Shown here piece after piece: positions 1 to 46,802 of a stretch of DNA of 64,000 bases. The DNA is from an uncultured Verrucomicrobia subdivision 3 bacterium (GTDB lineage: Bacteria > Verrucomicrobiota > Verrucomicrobiia > Limisphaerales > UBA11358): positions 3,625 through 67,624 of the forward strand of contig CAJAQO010000198.1 in the NCBI GenBank assembly GCA_903944085.1, written 5' to 3'. The position numbers were made by a program, and so were the translations under genes. Under the pieces are notes generated by a model. It was not told where the DNA came from. It ran no database searches and was given only the letters and a program-made list of their open reading frames with translations. How positions within the stretch are numbered: position 1 is the first letter of the stretch; the number at the start of each line of letters is the position of its first letter.

Positions 1-2739
1 GGCGCCATTTTTCTGGAGGTCAACCTCGGCATTCCGCGCGGGCCGGTGGATTTTATGAGTCCGCAATGGCAGGAACTGGTCGCGCACGCGATGCGGGAGG
101 CGGATCGTTTGGGCATTCAGATTGCACTGGGCGCCGGACCGGGCTGGTGTGGCACCGGCGGCCCATGGATCACGCCGGAACTCGCGATGCAGGATTTGGT
201 GGCGAGCACCACCAATGTGGCGGGCCCGGAAGTGTTTTCAGCCGAACTGCCGCAACCACAGCCCCGCGAGCCTTTTTTCGGCGAGGGCACGCTGACCCCG
301 GAACTCAAAAAAGAATGGCGCAATTTTTATCGGGATACCGCCGTGCTGGCGTTCCGCACGCCGGACGGCACGAACCGGATTGCCGAGGTGGATGAAAAAG
401 CCCTTTATTATCGCGCCCCATTTTCATCACAACCGGGAGTAAAACCGTTTCTGCCCGCGCTGGCGGAATATCCGGCGCTGCCGGCGGCGGACTGCATCCA
501 ACCGGGCGACGTCGTGGATCTGACGCAACAGCTTACTTCCGCTGGCCAGCTGAATTGGAAGGTGCCTCCGGGCCGTTGGACCATCATGCGCTTTGGTCGC
601 GCGCTGACCGGCCAGACGACGCGGCCCGCGCCGACGCCGGGTCTCGGTTTCGAAAGTGATAAGTTTAATCGCGCCGCACTGGACGCGCATTTTGCTGCTT
701 ATGTTCAGAAGCTGCTGGCCAGGATTGGACCGCGCACCAACGCGAACGGCGGACTGACGATGCTGCATTTCGACAGTTGGGAAATGAGTTCGCAAAACTG
801 GTCGCCCGGATTTCGCGCGGAATTTCGAAAACGCCGGGGTTATGATCCGTTGAAATATTTGCCCGCGCTGACCGGTCGCGTCGTGGGCAGCGAGGAAATG
901 TCGGAACGAGTCCTTTGGGATTTGCGGCGGACCGCCCAGGAACTCGTCGTGGAAAATCATGTCGGCTACTTGAAAATACTGGCCCACCGGAACGGGCTGA
1001 AACTTTCCGTTGAACCTTATGACTTGAATCCTGCCGGCGATCTGACGCTCGGCCGGGTGGCCGACGTGCCGCAATGCGAGTTTTGGCATCTTGGTTTTGA
1101 CACGGTTTACAGTGTCATCGAGGCGGCTTCGATTGCACACACCTGCGGCCGCAATGTGGTTGCCGCCGAAGCTTTCACCAGCAATCCGGGTGAAGATTGG
1201 CAGGCCGATCCGGCTTCCTTGAAAGTGCAGGGCGACTGGGCGTTTTGCACCGGCGTGAACCGTTTAGATTTTCACCGTTTTCAGGCCCAGCCGTGGACCA
1301 ATCGCTGGCCGGGTATGACGATGGGACCTTACGGTGTCCACTGGGATCGCACCCAGACTTGGTGGGATATGGTGCCCGCCTATCACGAATATCTGGCGCG
1401 TTGTCAGTCGCTCCTGCAGCGCGGCGTGACGGTGGCTGATGTTTGCTTTTTGGCAGGTGAAGGCGCGCCCTATGTTTTTCGCCCGCCGGATTCGGCCACG
1501 ACCGGAAATCCACCGGATCACGGCGGCTTTAACTTCGATGGTTGCGCGCCGGAAACCTTGCTTGAACGGGCCGAGGTGAAAAATGGCCAAGTCGTGTTTC
1601 CCGGCGGCACCAGTTACCGCCTGCTCGTGCTGCCGGAGCAACGAACGATGACGCCCGCGTTGCTGGCCAAAATCAAATCGCTCGTCCGCGCGGGCGCAAC
1701 GGTATTCGGCCCGCCGCCGGAAAAATCACCGAGTCTGCAAAATTTTCCAAAATGTGACGCCACCATTCAAAAACTCGCCCGGGAGCTTTGGGGCGGCTGT
1801 GATGGCAAAACCGTTTTCGCACACGCCTTCGGCAAAGGCCAGGTGGTCTGGCGGGAAACAAAAGTCAAACCGCAGGCAGAATATGGCGATTTCGCTGCGG
1901 TCACGTCCGAGCTTGCAGCAATGGGGGTGGTGCCGGATTTTGTCGCGGCTGGTCCCATTCGTTTCACGCACCGGCGCGATGGGGACACGGACATTTATTT
2001 TCTCGCCAATCGGGAAGATCGCGCCGTCGAAACAACCTGCCAGTTCCGCACGGTCGGTCGCCAGCCTGAACTGTGGGATTCGCAGACCGGCAAGACGCGG
2101 GAATTGCCGCAATTCACTTTTGGCGACGGCTGCACCACCATTCCAATGCATCTTGATCCGGAGCAATCGTGCTTTGTCATTTTTCGGAAACCGGTGGCAA
2201 AGGTGGCAACTCAAGAAATAAACTTTCCAAGTTTCCGGGATGCCGGGGTGTCCTTCTCGGGTCCGTGGGAAGTCAGCTTCGATCCTAAATGGGGCGGGCC
2301 GGAAAAAATCAGCTTCGACACGCTGGACAATTGGAGCCGACGCCCGGAGGCTGGCATCAAGTATTACTCCGGCCGGGCAACTTACCGAAAAATATTTACT
2401 TTGCCGACCGCATCGGTGGTGGCGGGCCAAAAATATTTTCTGGACCTGGGCGTGGTGAAGAATCTGGCGCGCGTCCGCCTGAACGGCCACGATCTTGGTG
2501 TCATTTGGTGTCATCCATGGCGAATTGAAGTCAGCGACGCCATTCAGCCAGGGGAAAATCATTTGGAGATCGAGGTGGCCAACCTCTGGCCCAACCGGCT
2601 CATTGGCGACCAGTCGTTGCCGCCGGAGAAGCAATTTACTTGGACCACCCGTAATCCCTACCAGAAAAATTCGCCGCTGCTGTCGTCGGGCCTGCTCGGT
2701 CCGGTGGTGCTCTTGCAGGCAGATCCGGCGACCCATTAG
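1..2739 (+). CDS. GH106 alpha-L-rhamnosidase-like glycoside hydrolase (5' truncated by window edge)
   Basis: Frame open from base 1 (GAIFLEVNLGIPRGPVDFMS...). GH106 motifs GPGWCGTGGPW, LHFDSWE, AAEAFT, GVNRLDFH; C-terminal jelly-roll LDLGVVKNLARVRLNG...EVANLWPNRLIGD. Confidence 0.88.
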   Translation, partial: GAIFLEVNLGIPRGPVDFMSPQWQELVAHAMREADRLGIQIALGAGPGWCGTGGPWITPELAMQDLVASTTNVAGPEVFSAELPQPQPREPFFGEGTLTPELKKEWRNFYRDTAVLAFRTPDGTNRIAEVDEKALYYRAPFSSQPGVKPFLPALAEYPALPAADCIQPGDVVDLTQQLTSAGQLNWKVPPGRWTIMRFGRALTGQTTRPAPTPGLGFESDKFNRAALDAHFAAYVQKLLARIGPRTNANGGLTMLHFDSWEMSSQNWSPGFRAEFRKRRGYDPLKYLPALTGRVVGSEEMSERVLWDLRRTAQELVVENHVGYLKILAHRNGLKLSVEPYDLNPAGDLTLGRVADVPQCEFWHLGFDTVYSVIEAASIAHTCGRNVVAAEAFTSNPGEDWQADPASLKVQGDWAFCTGVNRLDFHRFQAQPWTNRWPGMTMGPYGVHWDRTQTWWDMVPAYHEYLARCQSLLQRGVTVADVCFLAGEGAPYVFRPPDSATTGNPPDHGGFNFDGCAPETLLERAEVKNGQVVFPGGTSYRLLVLPEQRTMTPALLAKIKSLVRAGATVFGPPPEKSPSLQNFPKCDATIQKLARELWGGCDGKTVFAHAFGKGQVVWRETKVKPQAEYGDFAAVTSELAAMGVVPDFVAAGPIRFTHRRDGDTDIYFLANREDRAVETTCQFRTVGRQPELWDSQTGKTRELPQFTFGDGCTTIPMHLDPEQSCFVIFRKPVAKVATQEINFPSFRDAGVSFSGPWEVSFDPKWGGPEKISFDTLDNWSRRPEAGIKYYSGRATYRKIFTLPTASVVAGQKYFLDLGVVKNLARVRLNGHDLGVIWCHPWRIEVSDAIQPGENHLEIEVANLWPNRLIGDQSLPPEKQFTWTTRNPYQKNSPLLSSGLLGPVVLLQADPATH

Positions 2740-2764
2740 GTTTTCAATTTATTAGGCAATAATT

Positions 2765-4585
2765 TTGACAACCCAAATTGAATCGACCGCATTTCCCGAG
2801 CCTGTCGGTTCGGGCAGATTGTCAAAAAGCCTGACCAAAACTAAGTGCAACAAAAATAAAATTATGGCGTCTCTTCTAATAGCCAATAGTTTACTTGGCA
2901 AGTCACTTGCGGCCACGCGTCAAATCATTCAGGCGTCGCTGGGCAACATTATCTACATTCTTATACTTTGCAGTCTTGCCGTGGCGGATAGCCAGACAGC
3001 GGCAGTTGCCAGCGGGCCGCGCATTGTGAACCTTTACAATTTTGTCCGAAACTCCGATTCGCGCCTGGCGAATTCCGAAGAAATTCTTTTTGAAACCACC
3101 CGGCGACAGATAGAGTTGATTAAATCGGCCAATCTGCCGGCGACTTGGGCTTTGCAATATGATGCACTGCTCAATCCCCGCTATCAAAAGCTCTTCAAGG
3201 AACAATTGGGAACCAATGACGAGATCGCGGCTTGGTGGGAACTGCCGCGGCCATTGGTTGAAAAGGCCGGCCTGAAGTGGCGGGGCCGGCACGACTGGGA
3301 TTGGGCGGCGAATGTCGGCTTTTCGCCGGGTTACACTCCGGCCGAACGGCGCAAACTGGTGGACGTTTACATGGCCGATTTCAAAGCGATCTTTGGTTGT
3401 TATCCCCGGACGGTTGGTTCCTGGTATATAGACGAAGTGACCTTGGCTTATATGGGCGAGAAATACGGCATTGTCGCCTCGTGCAACTGCAAAGACCAGG
3501 TTGGCACGGACGGCTATACGCTGTGGGGCGGTTATTGGAATCAAGCTTACTATCCCAGTCGGCTCAACGCCTATATGCCTGCCCAAACCAAGGCCGCGCA
3601 GATTAATGTGCCGATCTTTCGAATGCTGGGCAGCGATCCCATTTATCAACATGGCACCACGCCCGGCATGTTCACCCTTGAACCAGTTTATCCGGCGGCG
3701 GGAGGCTCGGCCGATTGGGTCGCATGGTTTATGAACAACCTAATTCATCAACCTGCGCTGGCGTTCGGCTTTACTCAGGCTGGGCAGGAAAATTCGTTTG
3801 GCTGGGAGGCGATGAAAACGGGGCTGACCCAACAGGTGGCGCTCTTTGCCGCGCAGGCCAAGGCTGGCGAAATTCAGGTCGAGACGTTGGCGCAAGCCGG
3901 GCAATGGTTTCGGAGTCATTATACCCTCACACCGCCCACCTCCGTGGTTTGTCTTGATGATTGGAAACATGAAAACCGCCAAACCATCTGGTATGACAGC
4001 CGTTTTTATCGGGTGAACATTCTTTGGGAAAACGGGACGTTTTTTATCCGTGATATGCACCGCTTCAATGAAAACATGGTCTCGGCAACCCATGACACCG
4101 CGCTGACTACCACCGCTTTGGCTTATGGAACTCTTCCCGTAATGGATGGCGCTCTCTGGTCCGGGTCACAACCGGCGGCCATTTGGCCGGTGTTGCTTGC
4201 GCGCGACGGCAAGAAAACACCACTGTTACCGGAGGGGCCATCTGCTGTCAAGGAACTGAACGCAACTGATTTGAGTATCAGTCAGCCGCTTCGCGGAGGC
4301 GGAACCTTTTCGATTATTTGCAGCGAACGCAATATCACCTGCATCGGGTTGGACGCACGCGGGCGACCTTTGCCTTGGGCTTGGGATATGGTCGGCGGCG
4401 CGCAGCAAAAATCCGCCGTTCAGACGGTCACGTCTACCGCTGTCACTTACATTTGTGCTGCGTTAAAATATCAACTCAAACTGTCCCCGAAGACGGGTTC
4501 CTGCCAGCAATTAACCAATGGGGCCATTCGACTAAGTCCCAATAATTCCGGGAAACTTGTTTTGAACTTAGCTGCAACCCCGTAG
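2765..4585 (+). CDS. Conserved hypothetical exported protein, putative NodB/GH57-like barrel carbohydrate-active enzyme; true start probably downstream (e.g. 2864)
   Basis: 606 aa ORF. Hydrophobic leader IIYILILCSLAVA, then PATWALQYDAL, EIAAWWE, FKAIFGCYPRTVGSWYID, KDQVGTDGYTLWGGYWNQAYYPS. The FGxxP-x-x-x-G pattern resembles deacetylase/GH57-type barrels. Lies in a CAZyme cluster. Confidence 0.6.
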   Translation: MTTQIESTAFPEPVGSGRLSKSLTKTKCNKNKIMASLLIANSLLGKSLAATRQIIQASLGNIIYILILCSLAVADSQTAAVASGPRIVNLYNFVRNSDSRLANSEEILFETTRRQIELIKSANLPATWALQYDALLNPRYQKLFKEQLGTNDEIAAWWELPRPLVEKAGLKWRGRHDWDWAANVGFSPGYTPAERRKLVDVYMADFKAIFGCYPRTVGSWYIDEVTLAYMGEKYGIVASCNCKDQVGTDGYTLWGGYWNQAYYPSRLNAYMPAQTKAAQINVPIFRMLGSDPIYQHGTTPGMFTLEPVYPAAGGSADWVAWFMNNLIHQPALAFGFTQAGQENSFGWEAMKTGLTQQVALFAAQAKAGEIQVETLAQAGQWFRSHYTLTPPTSVVCLDDWKHENRQTIWYDSRFYRVNILWENGTFFIRDMHRFNENMVSATHDTALTTTALAYGTLPVMDGALWSGSQPAAIWPVLLARDGKKTPLLPEGPSAVKELNATDLSISQPLRGGGTFSIICSERNITCIGLDARGRPLPWAWDMVGGAQQKSAVQTVTSTAVTYICAALKYQLKLSPKTGSCQQLTNGAIRLSPNNSGKLVLNLAATP

Positions 4586-4600
4586 GTTGCCAAAATTATT

Positions 4601-18110: not shown

Positions 18111-18956
18111 ATGAAAAAACTGAGATCGGCCAAAGCGGTGAAGCGGGCCTTTACCTTGATCGAACTGCTGGTGGTGATTGCCATCATCGCCATTCTCGCG
18201 GCCATGCTCCTGCCGGCGCTGTCCAAGGCCAAAGCGAAGGCGAATGGCATTAGCTGCATCAGCAATTTGAAGCAGCTCACGCTGGGAGCTCATGTGTATG
18301 CGGCCGACTTTCGCGACGCGATCATTATCAACACCTCCAGTTCAACTGCTAACACCTGGGTGTTGGGCAATGTTGGTGGCAGCACATTCACTACAGACTG
18401 GACCAATACCGCGCTCATCAGCGCCTCCCTGCTTTTTCCCTCGTGCAGTTCCCTGGGCTGCTACCATTGCCCGGGAGACAAGGCCTATGTCAACGGAACC
18501 ATCCTGCCACGCGCTCGCAGTTATTCGATGAATGGCATGATGGGGGACAACGGCCCGACCCTCCGGGCGGCGGCAAACAATCCGCATCCGGGGATCATGG
18601 AAAATCTCAAGTTCTCCTCCGTCCGCGATCCAAGTCCTTCGGCGGCGTCACTATTCGTTGACGAACAGACGGATGCTTCTTCGGCGGCAAATAACAGCCT
18701 GGATGACGGCTACTACGCCGTTAATTTCACCGATACTGGCCGGACTTGGCGCAATTGTCCGGCGAGTCGGCATGGTAATTATGGACAATTTTCTTTTGCG
18801 GACGGTCACGCGGGAATAATGAAATGGGTTGAACCGAATACCCGCAATCTGCAAGGGCTGGATGACAGCACCCACGGGCAATTTAAGGACCGGGATCTGC
18901 ACCAGGTATGGTTATCAACTTATTCCGCAAGTGCTCCCGGCAACCCCTGGCCGTAA
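18111..18956 (+). CDS. Prepilin-type N-terminal cleavage/methylation protein with H-X9-DG C-terminal motif (DUF1559-like)
   Basis: [50 protein letters not shown], and [12 protein letters not shown]. Confidence 0.92.
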
Positions 18957-23445: not shown

Positions 23446-24975
23446 TTGCAACGATTAGTTAATTTTTTGCACTGGCTTCGATCGTGGTTGAAAGGTTGTC
23501 AAATTGGGTCAACCACGTTGCTGGCCTCAGCTTTATGTTTCGCGGCGCTCATTCCGGTGCCGGCGAAAGGCCAAACTGTTGGCACCCAGCCGATGGTTCA
23601 ACAAAGCCTCGAGCCTTACGTCAGTCCGACCAACGGCCTTGGCTCGTGGATTTGGGCCAGCAACACTTTTGACGGGCAGAAATGTCAACTGTGGAAAACT
23701 TTTGAGATTCCGTCGGGCAGCATGGTTACTAATGCCCGGCTCGTGATGACGGTGGATAACGAATTTACGCTTTTCCTCGACGGACGTGAGTTGGGGCATG
23801 GCGCCGAGTGGCACGAATTGTTCGTTTTTGATTTGTCCCGGATTTTGTCTCCGGGCAGACATATTCTGGCCGTCGAGGCGTTAAACGGTTTTTCTTTCGC
23901 GGGAATGCTCTTTGGATTGCAGGTGGAACTGGCAGATGGACGAGTAATTATAGTCAAATCGGACAATAGCTGGCGGATTGTTCCTGATGGAGTAAGCCGG
24001 TGGCAAAAAAAGAGTGAACTCCAGCCGGGCTGGCCCGCAGCTACGATTATTGCGCCGTTGGGAAGCCTTCCTTGGTGGACGCAGCCGCTAAATGTGGACA
24101 AGATGCCCTCGCTGGAACCCATCAAAGTATTCTTTTGGCAGACCGGCTGGTTTCAGATCACGCTGCTTTTCATCTGTGGCTTGGTGATCTTGATCAGTCT
24201 TCGGCTCATGGCCCAACTGGCGCTGCACCAAAAAGAACGCTGGCTGTTGCAGCGGGAGCGTGCGCGGATCGCCCGGGAGATTCACGACGACATCGGCTCG
24301 CGCATGACGCAACTGCTGCTGCACGGCGAAGTGGCGCAAAGCGGGTTGCCGGCCGGCTCGGAAACGCAGCAACAATTGGTTCAAATCTGCGCTGAAGCGC
24401 GCGGACTGCTCTCAACCATGGACGAAATTCTTTGGGCGGTAAATCCCCGGCGGGACACGCTGCGCGATTTTGCCGCCTATGTTTGCAACTACGCGGAGGA
24501 GTTTCTGGAACCCACGCCCATCCAGTGTTTGTTTGAGGTGGATCCGGAAATGTTGTCCGCGACGTTTACGCTGCCGGTCCGGCGCAGCCTGCTCATGGCC
24601 ATCAAAGAAGCGCTTAATAATGCGGTCAAACATTCGGCCGCCACCGAATTGCGCCTTCAAATCCAATGGCAAAGCTCGCAATTGGTTGTGGTGGTGCAGG
24701 ACAACGGCAAGGGCTTTGACCCGGTGACGATGAAATCGGAGCGCAACGGCCTGCGCAACATGAGCCAGCGCATGACTGAACTGGGCGGCGCTTGTCATAT
24801 CACCAGTCAGCCCGGCAAAGGCTGTCGCGCCGAATTCAGCATTCCATTGAAGCATCCGCAGCGGCGGCTGTGGTCGTGGTTTTGGAATTTGAACGAAGTT
24901 TCGCCGCCGAGCAGCGAACCGAACCCGGTGCCGACCAATGAACCTTCACAAAAACATGACCCCACCCAATGTTAA
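23446..24975 (+). CDS. Sensor histidine kinase (HisKA_3/NarX-DesK type) with extracytoplasmic CBM67-like domain
   Basis: ERARIAREIHDDIGS H-box, EALNNAVKH N-box, DNGKGFD, NGLRNM. One TM helix at ~24135-24210. Start uncertain. Confidence 0.9.
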   Translation: MQRLVNFLHWLRSWLKGCQIGSTTLLASALCFAALIPVPAKGQTVGTQPMVQQSLEPYVSPTNGLGSWIWASNTFDGQKCQLWKTFEIPSGSMVTNARLVMTVDNEFTLFLDGRELGHGAEWHELFVFDLSRILSPGRHILAVEALNGFSFAGMLFGLQVELADGRVIIVKSDNSWRIVPDGVSRWQKKSELQPGWPAATIIAPLGSLPWWTQPLNVDKMPSLEPIKVFFWQTGWFQITLLFICGLVILISLRLMAQLALHQKERWLLQRERARIAREIHDDIGSRMTQLLLHGEVAQSGLPAGSETQQQLVQICAEARGLLSTMDEILWAVNPRRDTLRDFAAYVCNYAEEFLEPTPIQCLFEVDPEMLSATFTLPVRRSLLMAIKEALNNAVKHSAATELRLQIQWQSSQLVVVVQDNGKGFDPVTMKSERNGLRNMSQRMTELGGACHITSQPGKGCRAEFSIPLKHPQRRLWSWFWNLNEVSPPSSEPNPVPTNEPSQKHDPTQC

Positions 24976-24976
24976 A

Positions 24977-25684
24977 ATGACCAAGCCGGTCAAAGGAAAC
25001 CGGCCGGTCGAACCGGCATTAAAACGGCAGCTTAAAGTCGCCCTGGTCGAGGACCAGCCGGAAGTCCGGGAAAGCTGGATCAAACTCATCAATTCGTTTG
25101 CGGACTTCGCCTGCGTCTGCGCCTGCGGCAGTGGCGAGGAAGCGTTGCGGATGATTCCCCAGGAAACACCCGACGTCGTGCTCATGGACATATTTCTCCC
25201 GCGCATGTCTGGCATCGAATGCACCGTGCGGCTCAAGGCGCTGCTGCCGCAAACTCAGATCGTCATCCTCACGGCCATGGCGGATCAGGAACTGGTTTTT
25301 CTGGCGCTGGAAGCCGGGGCCGATGGTTACCTGCTGAAACGGACGAAGCCGGCGGACTTACGGACCGCTTTGCTGGACGTGCTGGGCGGCGGGGCACCGA
25401 TGTCGAGCCAGATCGCGCGCCGCGTGATTGAATCATTTCGACAAAAAGCCAAAATCCGGGATGAATTCGCACATCTTTCCATCCGCGAAGAGCAAATTTT
25501 AATGCTGCTTTCGCAGGGCTATGCAAACAAGGTGATCGCCGACAAACTGGAGTTGAGCATTGACACGGTATGCAGTCATTTGAAGCATGTATTTACGAAG
25601 TTGCAGGTGAGTTCGCGCACCGAAGCCGTGGTCCGTTACATGGCCTCCAAAACCCCGCCGCACAAGCCGGACGATCTGTCTTGA
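24977..25684 (+). CDS. NarL/LuxR-family response regulator
   Basis: LVEDQ, PDVVLMDI-LPRMSG, GADGYLLK receiver; LSIREEQIL...NKVIADKL...KLQVSSRTEAV HTH. Confidence 0.93.
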   Translation: MTKPVKGNRPVEPALKRQLKVALVEDQPEVRESWIKLINSFADFACVCACGSGEEALRMIPQETPDVVLMDIFLPRMSGIECTVRLKALLPQTQIVILTAMADQELVFLALEAGADGYLLKRTKPADLRTALLDVLGGGAPMSSQIARRVIESFRQKAKIRDEFAHLSIREEQILMLLSQGYANKVIADKLELSIDTVCSHLKHVFTKLQVSSRTEAVVRYMASKTPPHKPDDLS

Positions 25685-32691: not shown

Positions 32692-32711
32692 ACACAAACT
32701 ATAAAATAAAA

Positions 32712-35654: not shown

Positions 35655-35692
35655 AAGCAAATCCAGCCAATCAAATTGGCCGACACAACTTG

Positions 35693-35721: not shown

Positions 35722-35868
35722 TGGAAACTGGCTGTGTTTTTGATGTGCCATTGGCGCTGAGAACGAAGGACCTGATCTTTCCGTGAATTTATGCGACTAA
35801 CCTGCGAGCCGCTAAATAACTTTTGGCTGAAGTCTTGCATTTATCAAGGCAAAGCTCTACCAAGGGAA

Positions 35869-38187
35869 ATGCGCTTTTGTTACTTGTTGCTTACCGGCCT
35901 GCTTGGAAGTGGATTGAGCGCGGCGGCTGACTCCAATCCGCCGATTGACCGTCATGCGCTGGTCGCCCGGCATGACATTGACTGGCCCAGCCGCAATGGC
36001 CAGATGCCTCTGGGCAACGGCAATTTTGCCTTCAATGCTGACGGCACTGGTTTGGAGACCGTCGGCGGCAATACCATGTGCCATTGGTGCTGGCACAGCT
36101 TTCCGCTTCCGCCGGGCGTGACGCAAAACGAAATCAAGCCGTGGGCGACTCCGGATCGCGGGCGCTTGACAACGATTACCACGCCGGAGTCCCGACCGAT
36201 TTATGATTGGGAGCGCCTGAATCCGCAGCCGCTGAACTTGGGTCGGATCGGTTTCGTCAATCAGGAAGGCGAGCGCTTGACGGCGGCGGATGTGCGGATG
36301 GATTCACGTCGTCTTGAATTATGGTCTGGCATATTGACAAGCCGTTTTACTTACCTCGGCCAGCCGGTTTCGGTGCAAACATGTGTTGATCCCAAAAGCG
36401 ACACCGTGGCGGCGAAGGTAGAATCGGTTTTGTTGCGTGCCGGCCGGTTGCAGGTGATGCTGGATTTTCCGGCGCCGGCGCAAAATGTTGGTGCCTGGGT
36501 AGGAAATTATTCCCAAGCCGCCGGTCATCAGACGAGCATTGTTCGCCAAACTCCTAACCGGCTCCAATTGCACCGCACGATTGATGATGTCCAATATGAG
36601 GTTGTCCTAACTGGTCAAGGGTTTGCCACGAGCCGGCCAATGGCCATTCAACCGGAGATTGAAAGCGCCCGTTATGGTGCCGATGGCGGTGGCTGGACCA
36701 ATGTCACCGCCCAAGTGGCAGGCTCGCTGCGGGACCACGAAACCGTGACCGCCAACAATGAATTGTGCGGCGATCCAGCGTTGAATCACCCCAAACATCT
36801 TGAGATCAAATACCGTGTTGACGGAAATGAGCGGATTAAGAGTCTCTCTGAAAATGAAGCTTGGAACATTGGTTCGTCGCCTCACCGATTTATCCTGACT
36901 CCGAATGCCGGAACTGATGGTATTAATTTTACCTGTTACTTCGGAACCAATGCTGCCGAGGCCGGCACGACTGGTTTTGAGCGGATCAAGTCGGCGTGCG
37001 TTGTTTCATGGCGGGCGTTCTGGAACAGCGGCGGAGCCATTGATCTGTCCGGGAGCCGAGATCCACGCTGGATGGAGTTGGAACGCCGCATCGTGCTTTC
37101 GCAATATGAACTGGCGGCGCAATCGGCGGGCGACAATCCGCCTGCCGAAGTCGGATTGACCGGCACTGACCCTTGGGATGCCAAGTGGCACTTTGAAATG
37201 ATCTGGTGGCATCTGGCGCACTACGCGCTTTGGGACCGGTGGCCAATGGCCGAAAAAGCGCTCTCGATTTATTCGCGCGTGACTCCCGTGGCCAGAGCCA
37301 TCGCGACCAATTTTGATTATCAGGGCTTGATGTGGCCCAAATCCACCGGCCCCAATGGTTACAACGATGGATTTCCTCCCGAGATGGCATTGCTGTGGAA
37401 AGAGCCGCATCCGATCTTCTTCGCCGAACTGGATTACCGGCTGCATCCAACGCCGGCGACTTTGGCCAAGTGGAAGAACATCGTTTTCGGCACCGCTGAC
37501 TTCATGGCGGATTACCCGCAGCGGGATGCGATCACCGGACAATATAATCTCGACCCCGCCTGGCCTGCCAGCGAAGGTCACGTCCGGCCGTTGCGGCGAA
37601 ACACCATTTTCGAACTGGCTTATTGGCGCGTCGGACTCAACCTCGCGCAACAATGGCGGCTGCGCTTGGGACTGCCGCGCGAGCCGCATTGGGATGAGGT
37701 CGTCAGCCAGCTCGCGCCGCTGCCGCAGAAAGATGGTCTTTATATTTTCAGCGATGACCGGCCCGACACGTTCACCACCCGCACCTTTGACCATGTTGAC
37801 AACATCGGCATTGCCGGGATGCTGCCGCCGTTCCAGGGTTTTGATCCCGCGACGGCCCGGCGCACGGTGGAAGAAGTGGGCCGGAAGTGGAACTGGGATG
37901 CGACGTGGGGCTGGGATTTTCCGTGGATGGCCATGGCGGCGGCCCGCGTGGGCGATCCCAAACTGGCGGTGGATGCGCTGCTGAATGCCTCGTTCAAGAA
38001 TCATTACGACGAGCGGGGTATTTGCACCGGTGGCCCCGGACCGTATCTGCCCGGCAACGGCGGTCTGCTTTATGCCGTGGCCATGATGGCCGCCGGCTGG
38101 GACGGTGCGCCCAACCGCAATACGCCAGGCTTTCCCGCCGATGGTTCGTGGACCGTGCGCTGGGAAGACCTGAAACCCGCACCTTGA
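35869..38187 (+). CDS. Unclassified six-hairpin glycosidase-like protein (GH65/GH95-like) with SUEL-like insert
   Basis: Signal peptide from ATG 35869; IDRHALVARH, LGNGNFAFNADGTGL, ELERRIVLSQY, WDAKWHFEMIWWH, TWGWDFP, YLPGNGGLL. Confidence 0.7.
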   Translation: MRFCYLLLTGLLGSGLSAAADSNPPIDRHALVARHDIDWPSRNGQMPLGNGNFAFNADGTGLETVGGNTMCHWCWHSFPLPPGVTQNEIKPWATPDRGRLTTITTPESRPIYDWERLNPQPLNLGRIGFVNQEGERLTAADVRMDSRRLELWSGILTSRFTYLGQPVSVQTCVDPKSDTVAAKVESVLLRAGRLQVMLDFPAPAQNVGAWVGNYSQAAGHQTSIVRQTPNRLQLHRTIDDVQYEVVLTGQGFATSRPMAIQPEIESARYGADGGGWTNVTAQVAGSLRDHETVTANNELCGDPALNHPKHLEIKYRVDGNERIKSLSENEAWNIGSSPHRFILTPNAGTDGINFTCYFGTNAAEAGTTGFERIKSACVVSWRAFWNSGGAIDLSGSRDPRWMELERRIVLSQYELAAQSAGDNPPAEVGLTGTDPWDAKWHFEMIWWHLAHYALWDRWPMAEKALSIYSRVTPVARAIATNFDYQGLMWPKSTGPNGYNDGFPPEMALLWKEPHPIFFAELDYRLHPTPATLAKWKNIVFGTADFMADYPQRDAITGQYNLDPAWPASEGHVRPLRRNTIFELAYWRVGLNLAQQWRLRLGLPREPHWDEVVSQLAPLPQKDGLYIFSDDRPDTFTTRTFDHVDNIGIAGMLPPFQGFDPATARRTVEEVGRKWNWDATWGWDFPWMAMAAARVGDPKLAVDALLNASFKNHYDERGICTGGPGPYLPGNGGLLYAVAMMAAGWDGAPNRNTPGFPADGSWTVRWEDLKPAP

Positions 38188-38250
38188 AAACCCCAAAAAC
38201 TGTCCGATAAATCGGGGGATTAAACGCGGGAAAAAACGGTATCATTTTTA

Positions 38251-38279
38251 TTGACATTGTGATCTAGTTTTCCTAATCT
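38251..38279 (+). promoter_or_regulatory. Sigma70-type promoter candidate
   Basis: TTGACA-N17-TAATCT in the AT-rich spacer upstream of the 38532 gene. Confidence 0.5.
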
Positions 38280-38531
38280 AGGCCGAACCCCGAAAAACAT
38301 TTAAGAAAAACAACAATCATTCCATAACACAAAGAGTTCGCCCATGTCCTTGGTTTTGTGAATGAAGTATGTTGTTTTGCTTGACACGCGACTTCTAATA
38401 AATAGCTGTATGAAAGCGCAATCGTGCCATGGCTGCCGGCGATGGTTCGCTCAAGCGTCTCAGCACCTGCTGGGAGAATTTTACAGCATCCCATCTACAA
38501 TCAACCTAACCTAAACAGCCCACTGAAACTT

Positions 38532-41500: not shown

Positions 41501-44500
41501 TTTCAGCCCCGGCAGCACCAACTTTATGAGCATCACCAAGACCGGCGGCCCCGCCGCCTGCGACTTGATCACCGGATACACCGCCGGGACGACATTCCAT
41601 GGCACATTGGTCGTCACCAACATCACCAGCGACAGTAGCACGTTGGCCGTGGGTGATACTTTCCAGCTTTTCAACGGTTCCGGCGCCCTTGGCGCCTTTG
41701 ATCATCTCGTCCTGCCCAATTTGCCGGTTGGATTGAGTTGGGATGCCTCTCAATTGGCGACCACAGGTTACCTCACGGTGGCCAACACCGCCGCCGTGCC
41801 GATTTTCAATCCGCCTGCGGGTGGCTATGTTGGGGCACAAACGGTAACCATCACTTGCCTGACGCCGGGTGCAACCATTTATTACACGACGAATGGCAGT
41901 GTGCCGACCACCAGTTCCCCGTCTGGCCTCAGCGGGCTTACGGTTGCAGTGCCGGCCAACACAACTGGTCTGACCATCCAAGCCTTCGCCTCGAAGACTG
42001 GCTTTGCTGCCAGCGCGGTGGTGAGTGCGGTGTTCCAAACTATTGCGATACCGACTTGGACAAATCCCAATGGTGGGTCTTGGGCGACGGCGGGTAATTG
42101 GTCCAACAATGTCGTGGGCAACGGAGCCAATGTGGCGGCAGATTTCAGCACGCTGACTCTTCCAAGTCAGCCATATGTCACGATGGATGCCCCATGGATA
42201 ATTGGCAGTCTGAAATTTGGGGACGTGGGCAACACTTACGGCTGGGAGATTGACTCCGGCAGCGGCGGTCCGCTCACTTTGGCGGGCACCAATACGACCA
42301 TCACAGTCAGCAACCAAGCCGCGACCATCACCGCCGTGATTGTGGGCACCAACAACCTGACCACGGCCGGGCCGGGCACCTTGATTCTTTCCGGCAACAA
42401 CACGTTTACCGGCAACATCAATGTCACTAGCGGCCAGTTGACTTTGGCTAACTCGGCGAACCTGAACAGCCAAATCAGCCGGACCTTTAACATCCCCAGC
42501 GGCGCGACCTTGAGCATCGGCTACGGCGGCACGGTTTCGGGAACAACTTTTAGCAAGTCTTTTGGCTCTGGAATAACGGTGACTGGCAACGGCACGCTTC
42601 AATTTGATCCCGGAAGCGGCCTCGGCCTTGGCCTGGTGAACATCAGTGGGGGTGCCAAGTTAAATTTTGGCATGACCGGCGGGGTTATCAATATTAATTC
42701 GGGGATCGTTATTAATGGCGGTAACACGAGTCAAAACTGGACGACCAACCTGGCCGCGTTGAACATCGCCGCCGGCGCGACCTTCGATAATTGGAATGGT
42801 TCTGCGGTTTATGTGGACGCCTTGACTGGTTCGGGAACGCTCAGCGATGGCTACACTTCCGGCACGAGTTTTAATTTCGGGGTCAACAACGGCAGCGGCA
42901 CCTTCAGCGGTAACATCAGTTCTAACAACACAGGAACTGTTACCTTGAACAAACTTGGCACCGGCACTGAGATATTCACGGGCACGGATTCCAACCCCGG
43001 CACGATCAGTGTGAACAACGGCGCATTGTTCATTAATGGTTCGACCACCACGACCGGTCTCGTGTCGGTGGCCAGCGGAGCAATCCTTGGCGGCGTGGGC
43101 ACGATTGGCGGCCGGGTCAATGCGACAGCGGGTGGCTTTCTGGCACCCGGCGCCTCACCGTTCAGCTTAGGCACACTCACGTTAAGCTTCAACGCCACCA
43201 ACACCTTGACCCTTAATGGCAATACGCTTTTCTTTGGCCTTTCAACGGTGGCGAATTCCGACAAAATCGCCATCGCAGGTAATCTGGTTTTGAATGGAGC
43301 GAACATCGTGCAACTAAGTGCTCCCAGTGGATCCATTCCCGCCGGAACCTATACTTTGATGACCTATCCATCCAAAACGGGGAGCGGCACCTTGGCCCTC
43401 CAGGCAGCTTATCCTAACGCCACCCTGACGGTCGGGGCCACGAGCGTGACCTTGAATGTGACTGCCACCACTTATGTGCCCGGGGCGGTGTGGCAAGGTG
43501 CCGTCTCAGGAGTTTGGGACGGAGGTGCCTTGAACTGGACACGCAATGGAACCGGCTCTTCAGCCTATGTGGCGGGTGATAGCGTGACCTTTGACGACAC
43601 CGCCACCGGGAATTTCACGGTAAGCAGTGGCAGCCTGGTTTTGCCCGGCTCCGTCACCTTCAATAACTCCTTCAATAATTACACCGTGTCCGCCGGCATC
43701 GGGGGGGCCGGCCCGTTGGTTAAGAATGGCAGCGGCACGCTGACTCTTTCCGGCGCGAACACTTATACCAACACCACCACCCTCAATTCGGGCATGTTGC
43801 GATTCGCTGGCGGCAGTGCGCTACCGGGCGCGTCGGCCATCAATCTTGGTCCGGGGACGCTCCAGATTCTCAACGACGGCGCTGGCAACGGCGGCACCAT
43901 TGCCCTCGGCAACAGCATTACCCTTAGCGGGGCACTCACCACGGATACCATCAATGTCGGCAACAACGGCAGTGGCCACACCGGCAACATTGTGGCCTTT
44001 GGTTCGTTGAACAATGGCACTCCGGCCAATGCCAATGTGAGCACCATCAACTTCACTGCTGCGAACGGCTATCTGATGAGCTTCGGCGTCTTGGGGCTGC
44101 CGGGCAGCGGCGGTAACACCACCACGCTGAATCCCACCACCACCTCGCTGATTATTACGAATGTCGTGAACCAGGAGACTTCCTTCTCCGGCCATTACGA
44201 TACGGTTACGTTGGGTGGAACGAGCATAGGCAATGTGATTAACGGGGTGATTTCCGACTCCTCTGGCTATACCAGTGTCGGCAATGGTGACACGCGGGTC
44301 ACGATGTCAGGCAATGGCTGGACGCTCTCCGGCACGAACACCTACCACGGCCCCACGAGTGTTACCACTGGCAACTTGACGATTGGCGGCGCGGGTGAGT
44401 TGGGTGCCGGCAATTACACCGGGACCATTTCAATTTCGAGCGGCGCGGCGCTTAATTATGCCAGTTCGGCCAGCCAGATTTTCTCCGGCGTCATCTCCGG

Positions 44501-46802
44501 TGCCGGTAATCTGACCAATGCCGGCTTCGGCACTCTGATACTTTCCGCTACAAACACTTTAACCGGCCTTCTACAGGTTCCGACCGGGGAATTGGTGGGA
44601 GTGGCGGGAGGCGCCTGTTCGAACGCTGCCGTCCTCGTGGCGTCCGGAGCGACCAACGGCGTGCAAGTGCCCGTGTTTGGCGGGCAATGGGCTTGCAGTA
44701 ACTTGACCTATGGTGCCGGCACGACCTATCTGGACATCAATTTTGGCAGTGCTTATCCAAACACCACTAACGCGCCGTTGTTTGTGAACGGCAACCTGAC
44801 TAATAATGGCACCGTGAATCTCATCGTCCGTTCCAGCGTGGGAATTGGTGTTGGCGTCTATCCGCTCGTGAAATACACCGGTGTGACCAACGGCCCGCTG
44901 CCGGCCACGGCCTTTGCGCTCCCGGCGGGAATGGTTGGCAGCCTGAGCAACGATGTGGTCAGAAAATCCCTGGACTTGGTGGTGACGACGGCGGGCACTG
45001 GCCCGATCCCGCTGGAATGGGCCGTTGGCAACGGGACTTGGGATCTTAATACGACCGCCAATTGGAAGGATTTTAATAACGTCACTGGACAATATTATAC
45101 TGGTGGGAATGCCGTGACGTTCGACGACTCCGCAAGCGGCGCGTCGCCGATCACTGTGACATTGAACAGCACGGTCAATCCGGCGAATGTCACCGTGAAC
45201 GCCACCAAGAATTATACGATCAGCGGCACCGGAGGCATTGCTGGGTCAGCCGCACTGACCAAGAACGGCACCGGCACGAACATCTTATCTGGCGTGAACA
45301 CCTACACCGGCACCACCACCGTCAATACCGGCACGTTGCAATTCGCGGGCGGCAATGCGCTGCCGGGCGCGTCGCCCATCAGCCTTGGCGCGGCCACACT
45401 CCAGATTCTCAACGACGGCGCCGGCAGCGGCGGCACCATCTCCCTCGGCAACAGCATCACTCTCAATGTGGCCGCCACCACGGATACCATCAATGTTGGC
45501 AACAACGGGAGTGGCCACACCGGCAACACCGTTGCTTTTGGGGCTTTGAATAATGGAGCTCCGGGAAATGCCTTCGTCAGCACGATCAACTTCACTGCGG
45601 CCAACGGCTATCTGATGAGCTTTGGCGTCTTGGGGTTGCCGGGCTTATCCGGTAACACGACCACGCTGAATCCCACCACCACCTCGCTGATCATTACGAA
45701 TGTCGTCAACCAGGAAACTTTGTTTATCGGCCACTATGATACCGTCACGCTGGGTGGAACGAGCACGGGCAACGTGATCAACGGAGTTATCTCCGACTCT
45801 TCGGGCTATACCAGTGTCGGCAACGGCGACACGCGGGTTACGATGACGGGCATCGGCTGGACCCTCTCTGGAACTAATACCTACCACGGCCCCACGGCCA
45901 TCAGCACCAACACACTGACGATTGGCGGCGCGGGCCAATTGGGTGCCGGCAATTATACGGGGACCATCTCGATCGGGACTAACTCGGCGTTGAACTATGC
46001 GAGTTCAGCCAGCCAGATATTGGCCGGCGTCATCTCCGGTGCCGGTAATCTGACCAATGCCGGCGGCGCGCTTACGCTCACGGCCACGAACACCTACACT
46101 GGCACCACGGCGATTGGAGCAGGCTCGACGCTGGCAATCGGCGGTGCCGGCATGTTGAACAACGGCATCTATGCGGGGCTGATCATCAACAACGGCGCGT
46201 TCAATTATGCCAGTTCAGCCAACCAGACCAACAGCGGCGTCATTTCCGGCACGGGTTCCCTGACGAATGCCGGCCCCGGCATCCTGACTCTGACGGGCGC
46301 GAACACTTACACTGGCAACACCACGGTCAATGGCGGAACGCTGGTCCTCACCTCACCCACGCTGGCCACGAACTCCACCGTGACCGTGGCCAACAATGCC
46401 GTGTTGAAATTGAATTTTGCGGTGACGAACCAGGTGGCCACCCTCGTGCTGAACGGAGCACCGCAGCCCCCGGGCGTTTACAACAGTGGCAACACCCCCT
46501 TGATCGCCGGCACCGGCAGTTTGATGATTGCCTCTTCCGGTCCCATGGGATTCACCAATCCAACTGCCATCACCGGCTTCAGCCTGAACGGAGCGAACGT
46601 GGTCATCAGCGGGACCAACGGACAGGCGGGTGTGGCCTATTATTTGCTGGCCAGCACCAATCTGACTTTGCGGTTGAACCAATGGACGGTAGTGGCTACC
46701 AACGTGCCGGCCAGTTCCGGGAATTACTCGTTCACCGCCACGAATGCGGTGTTCTCCGGTGCTTTGCAGCAGTTCTACATCTTGAGCAATACCAACTTTT
46801 AA
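38532..46802 (+). CDS. Giant secreted adhesin-like protein with autotransporter-associated beta-strand repeats and 2 CHB_HEX_C/FN3-associated domains; no C-terminal beta-barrel
   Basis: ATG 38532 gives a signal peptide ending LRA-Q. Many GxGTLxLSGxNTYTGxTTVNxG repeats; TPGATIYYTTNG twice; C-terminal ...ASTNL...QW...QQFYIL. Confidence 0.85.
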   Translation: MKVSTGTKTTILFAALLMVFATPSWLRAQSGTWTQTTSGGLWSNSGNWLGGIVADGSGATADFSQIDITADNNVHMDASHTLTAIIFGNKDASPAANWVLDDNGTGGGNILTLAGSSPSIAVNNLGAGETATISAAMAGGAAWAKSGPGNLILSGNSTLSSNINISSGQLTLANAANLNGGTIRTFTIGSGTTLSIAYGGTVSGTTFANSFGSGITVVGNGTLQFDPGSGLGLGLVNVSGGATFYLGMTGGLININSGILNNGGFTSQNWTTNKAGMNIASGAIFDVWNGAVVYIDALTGAGTLRDTETSGDTLNIGVNNGSGEFDGPIGGLAAIVMVKTGKGTEIFTGVDTNPGPVSVNGGALLINGNFTAYANTNGYSVNAGGTLGGTGVIGHPTYINNGGTLGAGLGTAIATLTFSNNLTLNAGSTNFMGITKTGGSTTNDVIVGLGALNFAGTLVVTNITSDASTLAAGDTFQLFNTAGGSGGFNNFVLPVLPVGLSWDTSQLAASGFIRVYDNTTVAMPVLSPGAGQYVGAQVVTLTCITPGATIYYTTNGTTPTTSSLSGPSGLTITLPSNTLGETIEAFGHETGFADSALVIAAYQTVPTAFWTNPAGGSWATPGNWLNNVIGTGAYGTADFSTLTLSSLTDVTLDGTWTIANLKFGDVGNTYGWEIDPGSGGPFTLSGINSTITVSNQTVNFTAVIAGTNNLTTAGNGTLIFNGDNTFAGNINVTAGELNLANAANLDSGVSRIFSIATNSMLSISYGSPTEGNATSAGFGAGITVVGNGTLQFDPGSGNYIGLVSLSSTPYLNLNMSNGWINVISGTLVDGGWQSQNWTNSKAGLNIASGAQLDVWNGNWLYIDALTGSGSIINGYPSGVGNTLNIGVNNGSGEFDGSISSVPPINFVKSGAGTQIFTGSDSAPGSITVNGGAMLINGDFSLVTGSFTANAGGTLGGSGLIGGAVTINSGGTLGVKLGTGVGTLTLANLLTFSPGSTNFMSITKTGGPAACDLITGYTAGTTFHGTLVVTNITSDSSTLAVGDTFQLFNGSGALGAFDHLVLPNLPVGLSWDASQLATTGYLTVANTAAVPIFNPPAGGYVGAQTVTITCLTPGATIYYTTNGSVPTTSSPSGLSGLTVAVPANTTGLTIQAFASKTGFAASAVVSAVFQTIAIPTWTNPNGGSWATAGNWSNNVVGNGANVAADFSTLTLPSQPYVTMDAPWIIGSLKFGDVGNTYGWEIDSGSGGPLTLAGTNTTITVSNQAATITAVIVGTNNLTTAGPGTLILSGNNTFTGNINVTSGQLTLANSANLNSQISRTFNIPSGATLSIGYGGTVSGTTFSKSFGSGITVTGNGTLQFDPGSGLGLGLVNISGGAKLNFGMTGGVININSGIVINGGNTSQNWTTNLAALNIAAGATFDNWNGSAVYVDALTGSGTLSDGYTSGTSFNFGVNNGSGTFSGNISSNNTGTVTLNKLGTGTEIFTGTDSNPGTISVNNGALFINGSTTTTGLVSVASGAILGGVGTIGGRVNATAGGFLAPGASPFSLGTLTLSFNATNTLTLNGNTLFFGLSTVANSDKIAIAGNLVLNGANIVQLSAPSGSIPAGTYTLMTYPSKTGSGTLALQAAYPNATLTVGATSVTLNVTATTYVPGAVWQGAVSGVWDGGALNWTRNGTGSSAYVAGDSVTFDDTATGNFTVSSGSLVLPGSVTFNNSFNNYTVSAGIGGAGPLVKNGSGTLTLSGANTYTNTTTLNSGMLRFAGGSALPGASAINLGPGTLQILNDGAGNGGTIALGNSITLSGALTTDTINVGNNGSGHTGNIVAFGSLNNGTPANANVSTINFTAANGYLMSFGVLGLPGSGGNTTTLNPTTTSLIITNVVNQETSFSGHYDTVTLGGTSIGNVINGVISDSSGYTSVGNGDTRVTMSGNGWTLSGTNTYHGPTSVTTGNLTIGGAGELGAGNYTGTISISSGAALNYASSASQIFSGVISGAGNLTNAGFGTLILSATNTLTGLLQVPTGELVGVAGGACSNAAVLVASGATNGVQVPVFGGQWACSNLTYGAGTTYLDINFGSAYPNTTNAPLFVNGNLTNNGTVNLIVRSSVGIGVGVYPLVKYTGVTNGPLPATAFALPAGMVGSLSNDVVRKSLDLVVTTAGTGPIPLEWAVGNGTWDLNTTANWKDFNNVTGQYYTGGNAVTFDDSASGASPITVTLNSTVNPANVTVNATKNYTISGTGGIAGSAALTKNGTGTNILSGVNTYTGTTTVNTGTLQFAGGNALPGASPISLGAATLQILNDGAGSGGTISLGNSITLNVAATTDTINVGNNGSGHTGNTVAFGALNNGAPGNAFVSTINFTAANGYLMSFGVLGLPGLSGNTTTLNPTTTSLIITNVVNQETLFIGHYDTVTLGGTSTGNVINGVISDSSGYTSVGNGDTRVTMTGIGWTLSGTNTYHGPTAISTNTLTIGGAGQLGAGNYTGTISIGTNSALNYASSASQILAGVISGAGNLTNAGGALTLTATNTYTGTTAIGAGSTLAIGGAGMLNNGIYAGLIINNGAFNYASSANQTNSGVISGTGSLTNAGPGILTLTGANTYTGNTTVNGGTLVLTSPTLATNSTVTVANNAVLKLNFAVTNQVATLVLNGAPQPPGVYNSGNTPLIAGTGSLMIASSGPMGFTNPTAITGFSLNGANVVISGTNGQAGVAYYLLASTNLTLRLNQWTVVATNVPASSGNYSFTATNAVFSGALQQFYILSNTNF
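43800..46065 (+). repeat. Intragenic direct repeat, ~730 bp high-identity segments (about 43800-44530 and 45340-46065; offset 1539 bp)
   Basis: CTCCAGATTCTCAACGACGGCGC at 43860 and 45399; the shared peptide NFTAANGYLMSFGVLGLPG...ISDSSGYTSVGNGDTRVTM. Confidence 0.9.

Follow-up and report, generated by a model that had tools for sequence, protein, structure and literature searches.

A putative two-compartment rhamnoside-harvesting gene cluster with a lectin-type sensor kinase in a Verrucomicrobia subdivision 3 bacterium

The DNA analysed here (hereafter the window) is a stretch of 64,000 nucleotides corresponding to positions 3625-67624 of the 78,371-base contig CAJAQO010000198.1 (C198), from an uncultured Verrucomicrobia subdivision 3 bacterium whose genome assembly comprises 5.79 Mb in 335 contigs and is 96% complete. 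Twelve genes, all on the forward strand, lie between window positions 1 and 46802 (Table 1), as judged from an open reading frame (ORF) list together with Pfam and NCBIfam scans. The cluster really begins 195 bases 5′ of the window edge, where the start codon of its first gene is found on the contig. These genes encode one GH106 and two GH78 α-L-rhamnosidases, two unclassified proteins, four giant secreted proteins, a prepilin of the H-X9-DG kind, and a sensor kinase with its response regulator; signal-like N-terminal sequences are present on the products of the cluster genes, as surveyed over all listed proteins. An earlier reading made from the DNA alone (the sequence-only reading) had described the same inventory in a co-oriented cluster of about 47 kb, and the scans bear it out. 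In the explanation that we favour, and which we place just on the probable side of even, the cluster would be a two-compartment rhamnoside-harvesting regulon of a Pedosphaera-like bacterium.

Table 1. Genes of the cluster in window coordinates (aa, amino acids)
Feature	Position	Strand	Evidence and remarks
GH106 α-L-rhamnosidase	1..2739	+	PF17132 E 2e-170; 5′ end cut by window
unk606, unclassified secreted protein, 606 aa	2765..4585	+	no family; probable ATG 2864
giant1, 2661 aa	4601..12586	+	Pfam domains, modules, FYRL C-terminal domain
giant2, 1671 aa	12956..17971	+	six CBM32-fold modules, Ig spacers, FYRL C-terminal domain
Prepilin-type protein, putatively of the DUF1559/H-X9-DG kind	18111..18956	+	N_methyl E 8e-8, H-X9-DG motif
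GH78a α-L-rhamnosidase, 1443 aa	19033..23364	+	five GH78 Pfam domains
HisKA_3 sensor histidine kinase	23446..24975	+	HisKA_3, HATPase_c, CBM67-like sensor
NarL/LuxR-type response regulator	24938..25684	+	Response_reg E 4e-25, GerE E 5e-16, NarL model E 9e-41
giant3, 2169 aa	26182..32691	+	fn3, DUF642, Big_7, Ig, PATR, modules, FYRL domain
GH78b α-L-rhamnosidase, 980 aa	32712..35654	+	five GH78 Pfam domains
unk798, 798-aa ORF 35791-38187	35869..38187	+	start at M27; GH65/GH95/GH139-like fold; no Pfam match
giant4, 2792 aa	38424..46802	+	PATR, CHB_HEX_C/Fn3_assoc, FYRL-type C-terminal domain; probable ATG 38532

The kinase and regulator form a two-component pair of the HisKA_3/NarL class. Pfam recognizes HisKA_3 and HATPase_c domains in the kinase and receiver and GerE domains in the regulator, whose start overlaps the kinase stop. 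The kinase carries hydrophobic segments at aa 18-40 and 232-261, and the domain at aa 57-211 (window 23614-24078) should face the periplasm because it is flanked by them. This domain matches the Pleurotus ostreatus lectin (PDB 6T0Q, 6T1D and 6KBJ) at E 1.4e-15, or at E 2.4e-17 when searched alone. Furthermore, aa 66-211 match residues 138-293 of the S. avermitilis rhamnosidase Rha78A (3W5M) at E 9.5e-6 (domain alone 1.4e-7), residues that we take to be the CBM67 of that enzyme. Kinase residues D104-N105 align with D179-N180 of Rha78A, which are presumably ligands of calcium and rhamnose. Of 28 kinase-length homologs, 27 have D-N at this position and one has D-D, as does the Pleurotus lectin. 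A CBM67-like domain is also present in GH78a (aa 147-323; match to lectin 6t1d at E 2e-11) and in the GH78 proteins that adjoin homologous kinases.

Rha78A is described as bearing a calcium-dependent, rhamnose-binding CBM67, in a passage that gives no residue numbers (PMC4690510), and the Pleurotus lectin is tabulated as CBM67-like with the ligands Gal, GalNAc, GlcNAc and L-Rha (PMC11186620). The kinase sensor appears, by this homology and by its topology, to be a CBM67-like rhamnose-lectin domain, with rhamnose as the expected ligand. It shares about 155 homologous residues with the CBM67 of Rha78A (3W5M/3W5N) and with the Pleurotus lectin (6T0Q, 6KBJ), and it keeps the D-N pair of the former. 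In contrast to the CBM67, which is an enzyme appendage, and to the Pleurotus domain, which is a free lectin, it would serve as the periplasmic input of a histidine kinase. Our literature search found no fusion of a CBM67 to a histidine kinase; the genome and metagenome surveys that mention both appear, by title and abstract, to do so incidentally.

The kinase is consistently linked to rhamnosidase genes. Among 100 genomes sampled from the family, 35 have a full-length homolog (best E 1e-119 or lower, sensor covered). A search of 300 genomes from the rest of the phylum, in which no more than 5 candidates were scored for each, yielded 1. All six of the closest kinase loci contain a regulator, and all six contain GH78 and/or GH106. 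Within 10 kb on each side of 20 more distant kinase loci we found a regulator in every case, GH78 or GH106 in 14, a protein ending in the C-terminal domain described below (a tagged protein) in 15, and a prepilin in 13; the locus-specific module of the giant proteins was present in 0 of the 20. From the gene densities of this genome, the shares expected in a random 20-kb segment are about 0.04 for GH78/GH106, 0.41 for a tagged protein and 0.16 for a prepilin. The common order in the distant loci is a rhamnosidase, then kinase, regulator, a tagged 1200-1600-aa Laminin_G_3/Ig/PATR protein, and a prepilin. Together with the CBM67-homologous sensor, these neighbourhoods support the idea, put forward in the sequence-only reading, of a rhamnose-dedicated system resembling a polysaccharide utilization locus (PUL) and having its own two-component pair.

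A second locus of the same plan occupies contig C184 of this genome (positions 1-29570; loci L056 and L057). It comprises GH106 and regulator genes, a gene for a CBM67-type kinase homologous to that of the window (E 1e-143), genes for three tagged giants, and a GH78-like gene. The giants of this paralogous locus are of the PATR/Laminin_G kind, and two GH78-like proteins with a variant tag ending FFRIRYSVTN were noted on the contig.

Four proteins of the cluster share a module of about 205 aa. Eleven copies are distributed over giant1 (two), giant2 (six), giant3 (two) and GH78a (one), and a profile search of all ORFs in the 5.8-Mb genome found the module confined to these four proteins. No copy matches Pfam at E 0.01 or better, so that the CBM32/F5_F8_type_C sequence model does not recognize it, and the module profile retrieves none of the PDB sequences at E 1 or better. 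An AlphaFold2 model built from a 32-row alignment (pLDDT 91.4) predicts a β-jelly-roll. When this model was compared with known structures by VIA-align, IFT25 gave a Z of 13.2 and the C-terminal domain of BT0459 one of 12.2, and many CBM32s, along with an F-lectin and a pectin-binding CBM32, fell at 10-11.4; Foldseek matches were weak (best E 9e-4). Thus far the module is like CBM32 and F5-8 type C (discoidin) domains in its predicted fold and in being appended to glycoside hydrolases, but it differs from them in its length of about 205 aa, its N-terminal extension and the lack of any sequence-level match.

In a large protein collection we found 664 module-bearing proteins at E 1e-5 or better, with lengths of 793-2526 aa; one module-array protein among them is from Pedosphaera parvula. 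Among the best 120 of these, 30 carry GH78, 2 GH43, 1 GxGYxYP, 2 DUF642 and 1 PATR, and 84 carry Ig only, as giant2 does. Because the module is appended to glycosidases, arrayed in tandem in a non-catalytic partner and predicted to have a lectin-type fold, it is most simply viewed as a carbohydrate-binding module (CBM), probably of a new family tied to GH78. We propose that giant2 is a multivalent glycan binder. The sequence-only reading had assigned it such a role, and the six predicted CBM32-fold modules in tandem, the same module on GH78a and its confinement to this locus within the genome all argue for it.

The fold relatives of the module also bear on a different explanation, in which the sensor and modules would recognize another sugar, such as galactose or GalNAc, and the target would be a galactose-bearing pectic or arabinogalactan glycan on which the rhamnosidases are accessory. 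These relatives are mostly galactose- or fucose-binding CBM32s and F-lectins, the module occurs on GH43 enzymes too, and the best PDB match of the sensor is a lectin listed for several sugars (PMC11186620). However, rhamnosidases are the only recognizable catalytic families in the locus, and GH78 accounts for 30 of the 33 enzyme-domain carriers among the best 120 module-bearing proteins. Moreover, the sensor has the D-N pair of the rhamnosidase CBM67 where the lectin has D-D, and it is homologous to the CBM67-like domain of neighbouring GH78s. We consider a target other than rhamnose to be unlikely.

The giant proteins differ in composition around these modules. Giant1 has a signal peptide followed by two modules (aa 23-229 and 228-418), Ig, DUF1349-like, five lamin-tail and CotH-like domains. 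Its CotH kinase-like domain (aa 1632-1900 and flanks) sits amid the five lamin-tail domains, within the same protein as the predicted glycan-binding modules. Giant2 begins with a signal peptide and yields only Ig domains by Pfam; our own hidden Markov model places its six modules at aa 23-226, 225-420, 530-759, 856-1082, 1170-1403 and 1409-1592, directly before the C-terminal domain at aa 1593-1671. Giant3 combines fn3, three DUF642, Big_7 and Ig domains with two modules (aa 1261-1461 and 1550-1757) and PATR repeats, and an ortholog 73% identical to it adjoins GH78b in genome G084. Giant4 contains PATR β-helix repeats and two CHB_HEX_C/Fn3_assoc domains. The PATR repeats of giant3 and giant4 are not accompanied in the Pfam scans by the C-terminal β-barrel translocator of autotransporters; in both proteins the C-terminus is instead the domain described next, which has no Pfam match.

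Giants 1-4 and GH78a end in a common domain of about 75 aa (the FYRL domain). It has no transmembrane helix, and its final strand has the motif (R/K)F(Y/F)R(L/V), after which only 1-4 residues follow. An iterated profile places it at the extreme C-terminus of 131 ORFs in this genome, 129 of them with i-E below 1e-5; this count is a lower bound, as the C184 giants were missed by the profile. None of the five copies in the cluster matches any Pfam or NCBIfam model even at E up to 10, including the models for the C-terminal domain (CTD) of the type IX secretion system (T9SS) and for PEP-CTERM. When a 33-row profile was run on 300 genomes from elsewhere in the phylum, scoring no more than 18 candidates in each, 81 of them gave a match. 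The tag is not specific to rhamnose loci, because in relatives it also ends a GH32 enzyme (L061:2090-5671) and a BNR_4/F5_F8_type_C protein (L079:487-3996). GH78b, GH106 and unk798 do not carry it.

The FYRL domain resembles the T9SS CTD and PEP-CTERM in that it is short and sits at the extreme C-terminus of numerous large secreted proteins and enzymes within a single genome, but it has its own end motif and is not matched by the curated models of either kind. By this analogy it may be a sorting or anchoring tag that sets proteins bound for the outside apart from those of the periplasm. Tagged genes have secretin and T2SSE-ATPase genes close to them on C266 (at about 7.6-15.6 kb) and on C38 (at about 27-67 kb), where a prepilin paralog is near as well, and this proximity may hint at an export route of tagged proteins. 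Within the window, a 95-aa ORF at 52201-52488 (+), directly after a major facilitator superfamily (MFS) gene, consists of almost nothing but an FYRL domain ending RFYRAVSP; it may be a remnant or a stand-alone tag.

The three rhamnosidases are assigned by their family matches. In GH106 the PF17132 match spans profile positions 56-739 of 743, and the NCBIfam rhamnoside_JR domain is found at E 5e-45. Its full ORF on the contig (3430-6363) starts with an ATG at contig position 3430 and encodes a signal-peptide N-terminus, MKHISLW... Both GH78 proteins contain the Ig, Bac_rhamnosid_N, concanavalin-like, six-hairpin catalytic and C-terminal domains, with the GH78 core matching at E 7e-101 in GH78a and E 2e-118 in GH78b. 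GH78a matches PDB 3w5m at E 1e-228; its layout is a signal peptide, the CBM67-like domain, the catalytic core, one CBM32-fold module (aa 1160-1366) and the FYRL domain, and it is probably exported or surface-bound. GH78b has a signal peptide and lacks the C-terminal tag, and for this reason it is probably periplasmic. As families, GH78 and GH106 are exo-acting and release monosaccharide.

Among the unclassified proteins, unk798 has a signal peptide from M27 and finds no Pfam, NCBIfam or PDB sequence match, so it belongs to no named family by sequence. A search at E 1e-10 or better gives it 1729 relatives, and 0 of the best 120 carry a functional name. Its AlphaFold2 model (pLDDT 77.7) is matched by Foldseek to GH65 (7fe3, E 2e-17), GH95 (8zbv, E 1e-15; 4ufc, E 1e-14) and GH139 (9hyq, E 1e-10), and the predicted fold is a β-super-sandwich with an (α/α)6 barrel, as in clan GH-L (GH65/GH95/GH139). 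Its sole paralog in the genome adjoins RhaA, RhaT and RhaM on contig C31. On the basis of this predicted fold and of the position of the paralog, unk798 is a candidate glycosidase of a new family linked to rhamnose. The other protein, unk606, likewise has no Pfam, NCBIfam or PDB sequence match. In the Atlas it falls only among hypothetical clusters of about 555 aa, with DUF3863 and GH57 as weak leads (scores 0.81-0.85), and a homolog adjoins the module-array gene in locus L093.

The prepilin gene lies between those for giant2 and GH78a. Matches to PF07963 (N_methyl; E 8e-8) and TIGR02532 (E 1.5e-7), a hydrophobic segment at aa 10-45 and the cleavage motif AFTLIE identify its product as a prepilin, and the H-X9-DG motif is present in the sequence. 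DUF1559 (PF07596) scores 20.4 bits on it, below the cut-off of 23.3 bits. The nearest Atlas clusters carry N_methyl, with SBP_bac_10 in 17-30% of members. As the Pfam DUF1559 model gave only 12 weak matches in the genome and missed the prepilin of the window, we counted paralogs by protein search and with our own profile instead. This yielded 51 prepilin-like ORFs at E 1e-5 or better; given so many similar ORFs, a single prepilin in a 47-kb cluster is not in itself surprising.

The position of the prepilin gene is informative. By profile, 4 of the 6 closest loci have a prepilin gene directly 3′ of the giant2-like gene. A GTDB scan with the giant2 C-terminus retrieved 14 loci, of which 12 can be assessed (L082 and L088 end at the module-array gene), and in 9 of these 12 the next gene after the module-array gene encodes a prepilin; L090, L092 and L093 have none there. 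The gene after those nine prepilins is GH78 in seven, a kinase in one (L087) and nothing recognized in one (L085). Within this genome, 7 of 42 prepilin paralogs stand immediately beside a tagged gene, versus 184 of 4311 other genes (odds ratio 4.5, Fisher p 0.002). A random-position null shows only a mild excess (8 within 300 bases versus a mean of 4.9), and we prefer the gene-neighbour test because the null lets positions fall inside giant genes. The nearest paralog of 27 of 30 locus-linked prepilins is one of only 3 of the 44 in the genome, which at identities of 40-56% is suggestive only. Co-folding of the mature prepilin (aa 27-268) with the giant2 C-terminal domain scored 0.00 in two runs without controls and weighs neither way. 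The genome also encodes a prepilin peptidase, with 6 secretin matches and 15 T2SSE-type ATPase matches.

The conserved position after the module-array gene supports the view that the pilin belongs to the system, as the sequence-only reading had supposed. A check of synteny across Verrucomicrobiota, which that reading had called for, gave a mixed outcome: the order of module-array gene, prepilin and GH78 with kinase and regulator nearby recurs, and the entire 47-kb gene order was found in no relative examined. The latter result would suit an explanation in which the giants have general roles in adhesion or in the envelope and the prepilin belongs to a set of some 50 scattered paralogs, both placed by chance beside a small rhamnosidase/kinase unit. 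Chance neighbours must be common in a genome with 51 prepilin-like and at least 129 tagged ORFs, and orthologs of giant4 and giant1 are absent from most related loci. However, such a loose neighbourhood does not account for a module that is confined to the locus within the genome and common to giants and GH78a, nor for the recurrence of the triad order in 9 of the 12 assessable loci, nor for the prepilin that 13 of the 20 distant kinase loci have within 10 kb, where a share of 0.16 would be expected. We regard it as very unlikely.

No TonB-dependent receptor and no rhamnose catabolic gene were found in the window by the Pfam and NCBIfam scans, in agreement with the sequence-only reading. The sequence upstream, which that reading had singled out for inspection, has QueF, QueC and aldehyde dehydrogenase genes on the opposite strand within the 3.4 kb 5′ of the cluster, with no TonB receptor on the contig. 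The three matches to PF00593 in the genome are on contigs C326, C169 and C321; none is on C198 or in the cluster genes. SusD (PF07980, SusD_RagB) gave 0 matches in the 96%-complete genome, with the control detected in B. thetaiotaomicron. RhaA, RhaM and RhaT are encoded on contig C31, and microcompartment shell genes are also present in the genome.

The sequence-only reading had proposed an alternative capture architecture in which the multivalent protein and the adjacent pilin take the binding and uptake role. Spelled out, this would be a capture-and-uptake device replacing SusC/SusD: a pilus-like fibre would trap glycan fragments, which would then be pulled through the outer membrane. The lack of a SusD match, the location of all TonB-receptor matches on other contigs, and the conservation of the module-array and prepilin genes as a pair are consistent with this model. 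Gold-labelled dextran binds pili-like fibres of the crateriform structures of Planctomycetes, for which the authors speculate about a role in uptake (Boedeker et al., 2017, PMC5394234). Both cases concern bacteria of the Planctomycetes-Verrucomicrobia-Chlamydiae (PVC) group and a pilus-type structure, in the present case a putative one, tied to polysaccharide capture; the fibres, in the part of that work that describes them, were imaged with no genes assigned, whereas the present locus is known from association at the gene level. The uptake role itself finds no direct support, and we judge it improbable. The rhamnosidases of the locus all belong to exo-type families and are accompanied by no endo-acting enzyme, which makes monosaccharide the expected product, and no outer-membrane channel gene was seen in the locus by the Pfam scans. 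Because exo-acting families yield monosaccharide, and the RhaT symporter encoded with RhaA and RhaM elsewhere in the genome explains import more simply, an uptake function for binder and pilin is not needed.

The two-compartment regulon that we favour would operate as follows. Outside the cell, GH78a and the four giants would be exported and held at the surface through the FYRL domain, and giant1-3 and GH78a would bind a rhamnose-bearing glycan via the module, with six copies on giant2, two each on giant1 and giant3, and one on GH78a. In the periplasm, to which signal peptides without the tag would direct them, GH106, GH78b and the GH95-like unk798 would complete de-rhamnosylation. The CBM67-like domain of the kinase would detect L-rhamnose or a terminal rhamnoside, and the kinase would then act through the NarL-type regulator to induce the locus. 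Free rhamnose would be imported by RhaT and catabolized by RhaA, RhaM and the microcompartment, whose genes are present elsewhere. The prepilin/H-X9-DG protein has a conserved partnership with the module-array protein and GH78a. It would most likely be a pseudopilin, processed and assembled by a machine resembling a type II secretion system (T2SS) or type IV pilus (T4P), that aids the export or display of tagged proteins; this is the least supported step.

Several observations weigh against this explanation. The lectin that is the top PDB match of the sensor binds Gal and GalNAc besides L-Rha, and rhamnose specificity is for that reason drawn from context. Six of the 20 distant kinase loci have neither GH78 nor GH106 within 10 kb, and binomial tail probabilities overstate the linkage because related genomes are not independent samples. 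Among the GTDB loci, L089 is the same contig as G093:C4. The prepilin cannot be obligatory, because the paralogous locus has none on its 29.5-kb contig C184 and 35 of the 42 prepilin paralogs in the genome are not beside a tagged gene. Identity between the prepilin of the window and those found at the conserved position is no more than 28-53%, so some may be different paralogs. The surface placement of the tagged proteins is proposed purely by likeness to other C-terminal sorting domains. Finally, a search for exact 7-9-mers revealed no operator-like word shared among eight intergenic regions beyond the level of 200 shuffles.

Compared with Bacteroidota PULs, the cluster likewise encodes enzymes, putative surface glycan-binding proteins and a dedicated sensor/regulator together. 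In contrast to those systems, there is no SusC-like transporter on the contig and no SusD-like lipoprotein match in the genome. Its regulatory genes also differ, being of the classical HisKA_3/NarL type rather than a hybrid two-component system or an extracytoplasmic function (ECF)/anti-sigma pair. Orellana et al. (2021, PMC8857213) report that metagenome-assembled genomes of Verrucomicrobiota yielded no SusCD genes, and describe in them PUL-like units, including GH78 and GH106 contexts, as well as a route by which fucose and rhamnose are processed in a microcompartment. The general SusCD-less architecture is therefore already in print. The clusters of that study share with ours the co-location of GH78 and GH106, the lack of SusC/SusD and a genome with the microcompartment route. 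They differ in being marine, sulfatase-rich and characterized by enzyme content; the present locus contains no sulfatases. The relevant portions of that publication mention no lectin-type sensor kinase, locus-specific module, shared C-terminal tag or conserved prepilin, and the term 'two-component' does not occur in the paper. Our literature search found no report of the lectin-domain kinase, the module, the C-terminal tag, a GH95-like family beside RhaA, or the module-array/prepilin/GH78 triad. The locus is a new variation on the published SusCD-less PUL-like loci, with several new parts.

On its 3′ side the cluster is followed by an unrelated GntR/ROK/MFS unit and then by a urease/urea ATP-binding cassette (ABC) transporter cluster. 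The MFS sugar-transporter gene (50585-52000), 3.8 kb past the cluster, is paired with the GntR/ROK unit, and nothing links it to rhamnose. In the urease cluster (window 52993-59226, -) a phosphofructokinase-family gene lies between ureC and a fused ureA/ureB ORF, and the adjoining urea-type ABC permease (62042-63868, -) has HEAT repeats at its N-terminus. Homologs of the window proteins carry the source names Pedosphaera sp., Limisphaerales or Verrucomicrobiota, and records of related loci are titled Verrucomicrobiia, 'Verrucomicrobia subdivision 3' or Pedosphaera sp. Two GTDB loci (L089 and L091) are verrucomicrobial loci in records titled 'uncultured Bifidobacteriaceae bacterium', which are probably mislabelled.

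Near-identical DNA is present in pond, peat and permafrost metagenome runs. Four metatranscriptome runs contain contigs that match, at 99% identity or above, parts of the genes for giant2, the prepilin, GH78a, giant3 and the kinase/regulator pair, which gives a weak hint of transcription; these contigs span small shares of the stretch and carry no strand or level, uncovered parts are uninformative, and DNA carry-over is possible. At window 18145-18230 the RNA-library contigs pile up to 48x in one run, with many loose ends. The depth at this site is uninformative on the prepilin because its N-terminal helix is conserved at the nucleotide level across many paralogs and organisms.

To our knowledge, no function has been assigned to the prepilin/H-X9-DG family since the first PVC genomes, which contain dozens to hundreds of copies. 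One tentative and rather doubtful extension of our findings is that the H-X9-DG (DUF1559) prepilins of PVC bacteria might be cargo-specific pseudopilins, each paired with a large FYRL protein. Together with T2SS/T4P-like machines they might form an undescribed export-and-display route, a counterpart of T9SS/SusCD, that puts giant lectin-like binders and glycosidases on the surface; the rhamnose locus might then be one cassette, switched on by its lectin-domain kinase.

In soils, peat, fresh water and the sea, Verrucomicrobiota rank as major degraders of glycans rich in methyl-pentoses, and we know of no account of how they bind and process polymers without SusC/D. A kinase with a carbohydrate-binding module as its input would directly read out what the cell senses. 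The locus offers this lectin-input kinase, probable new families of CBM and of glycosidase, and the prepilin/tagged-protein pairing as testable objects, and it gives a testable handle on how a soil or freshwater verrucomicrobium may feed without the classic Bacteroides uptake machinery.

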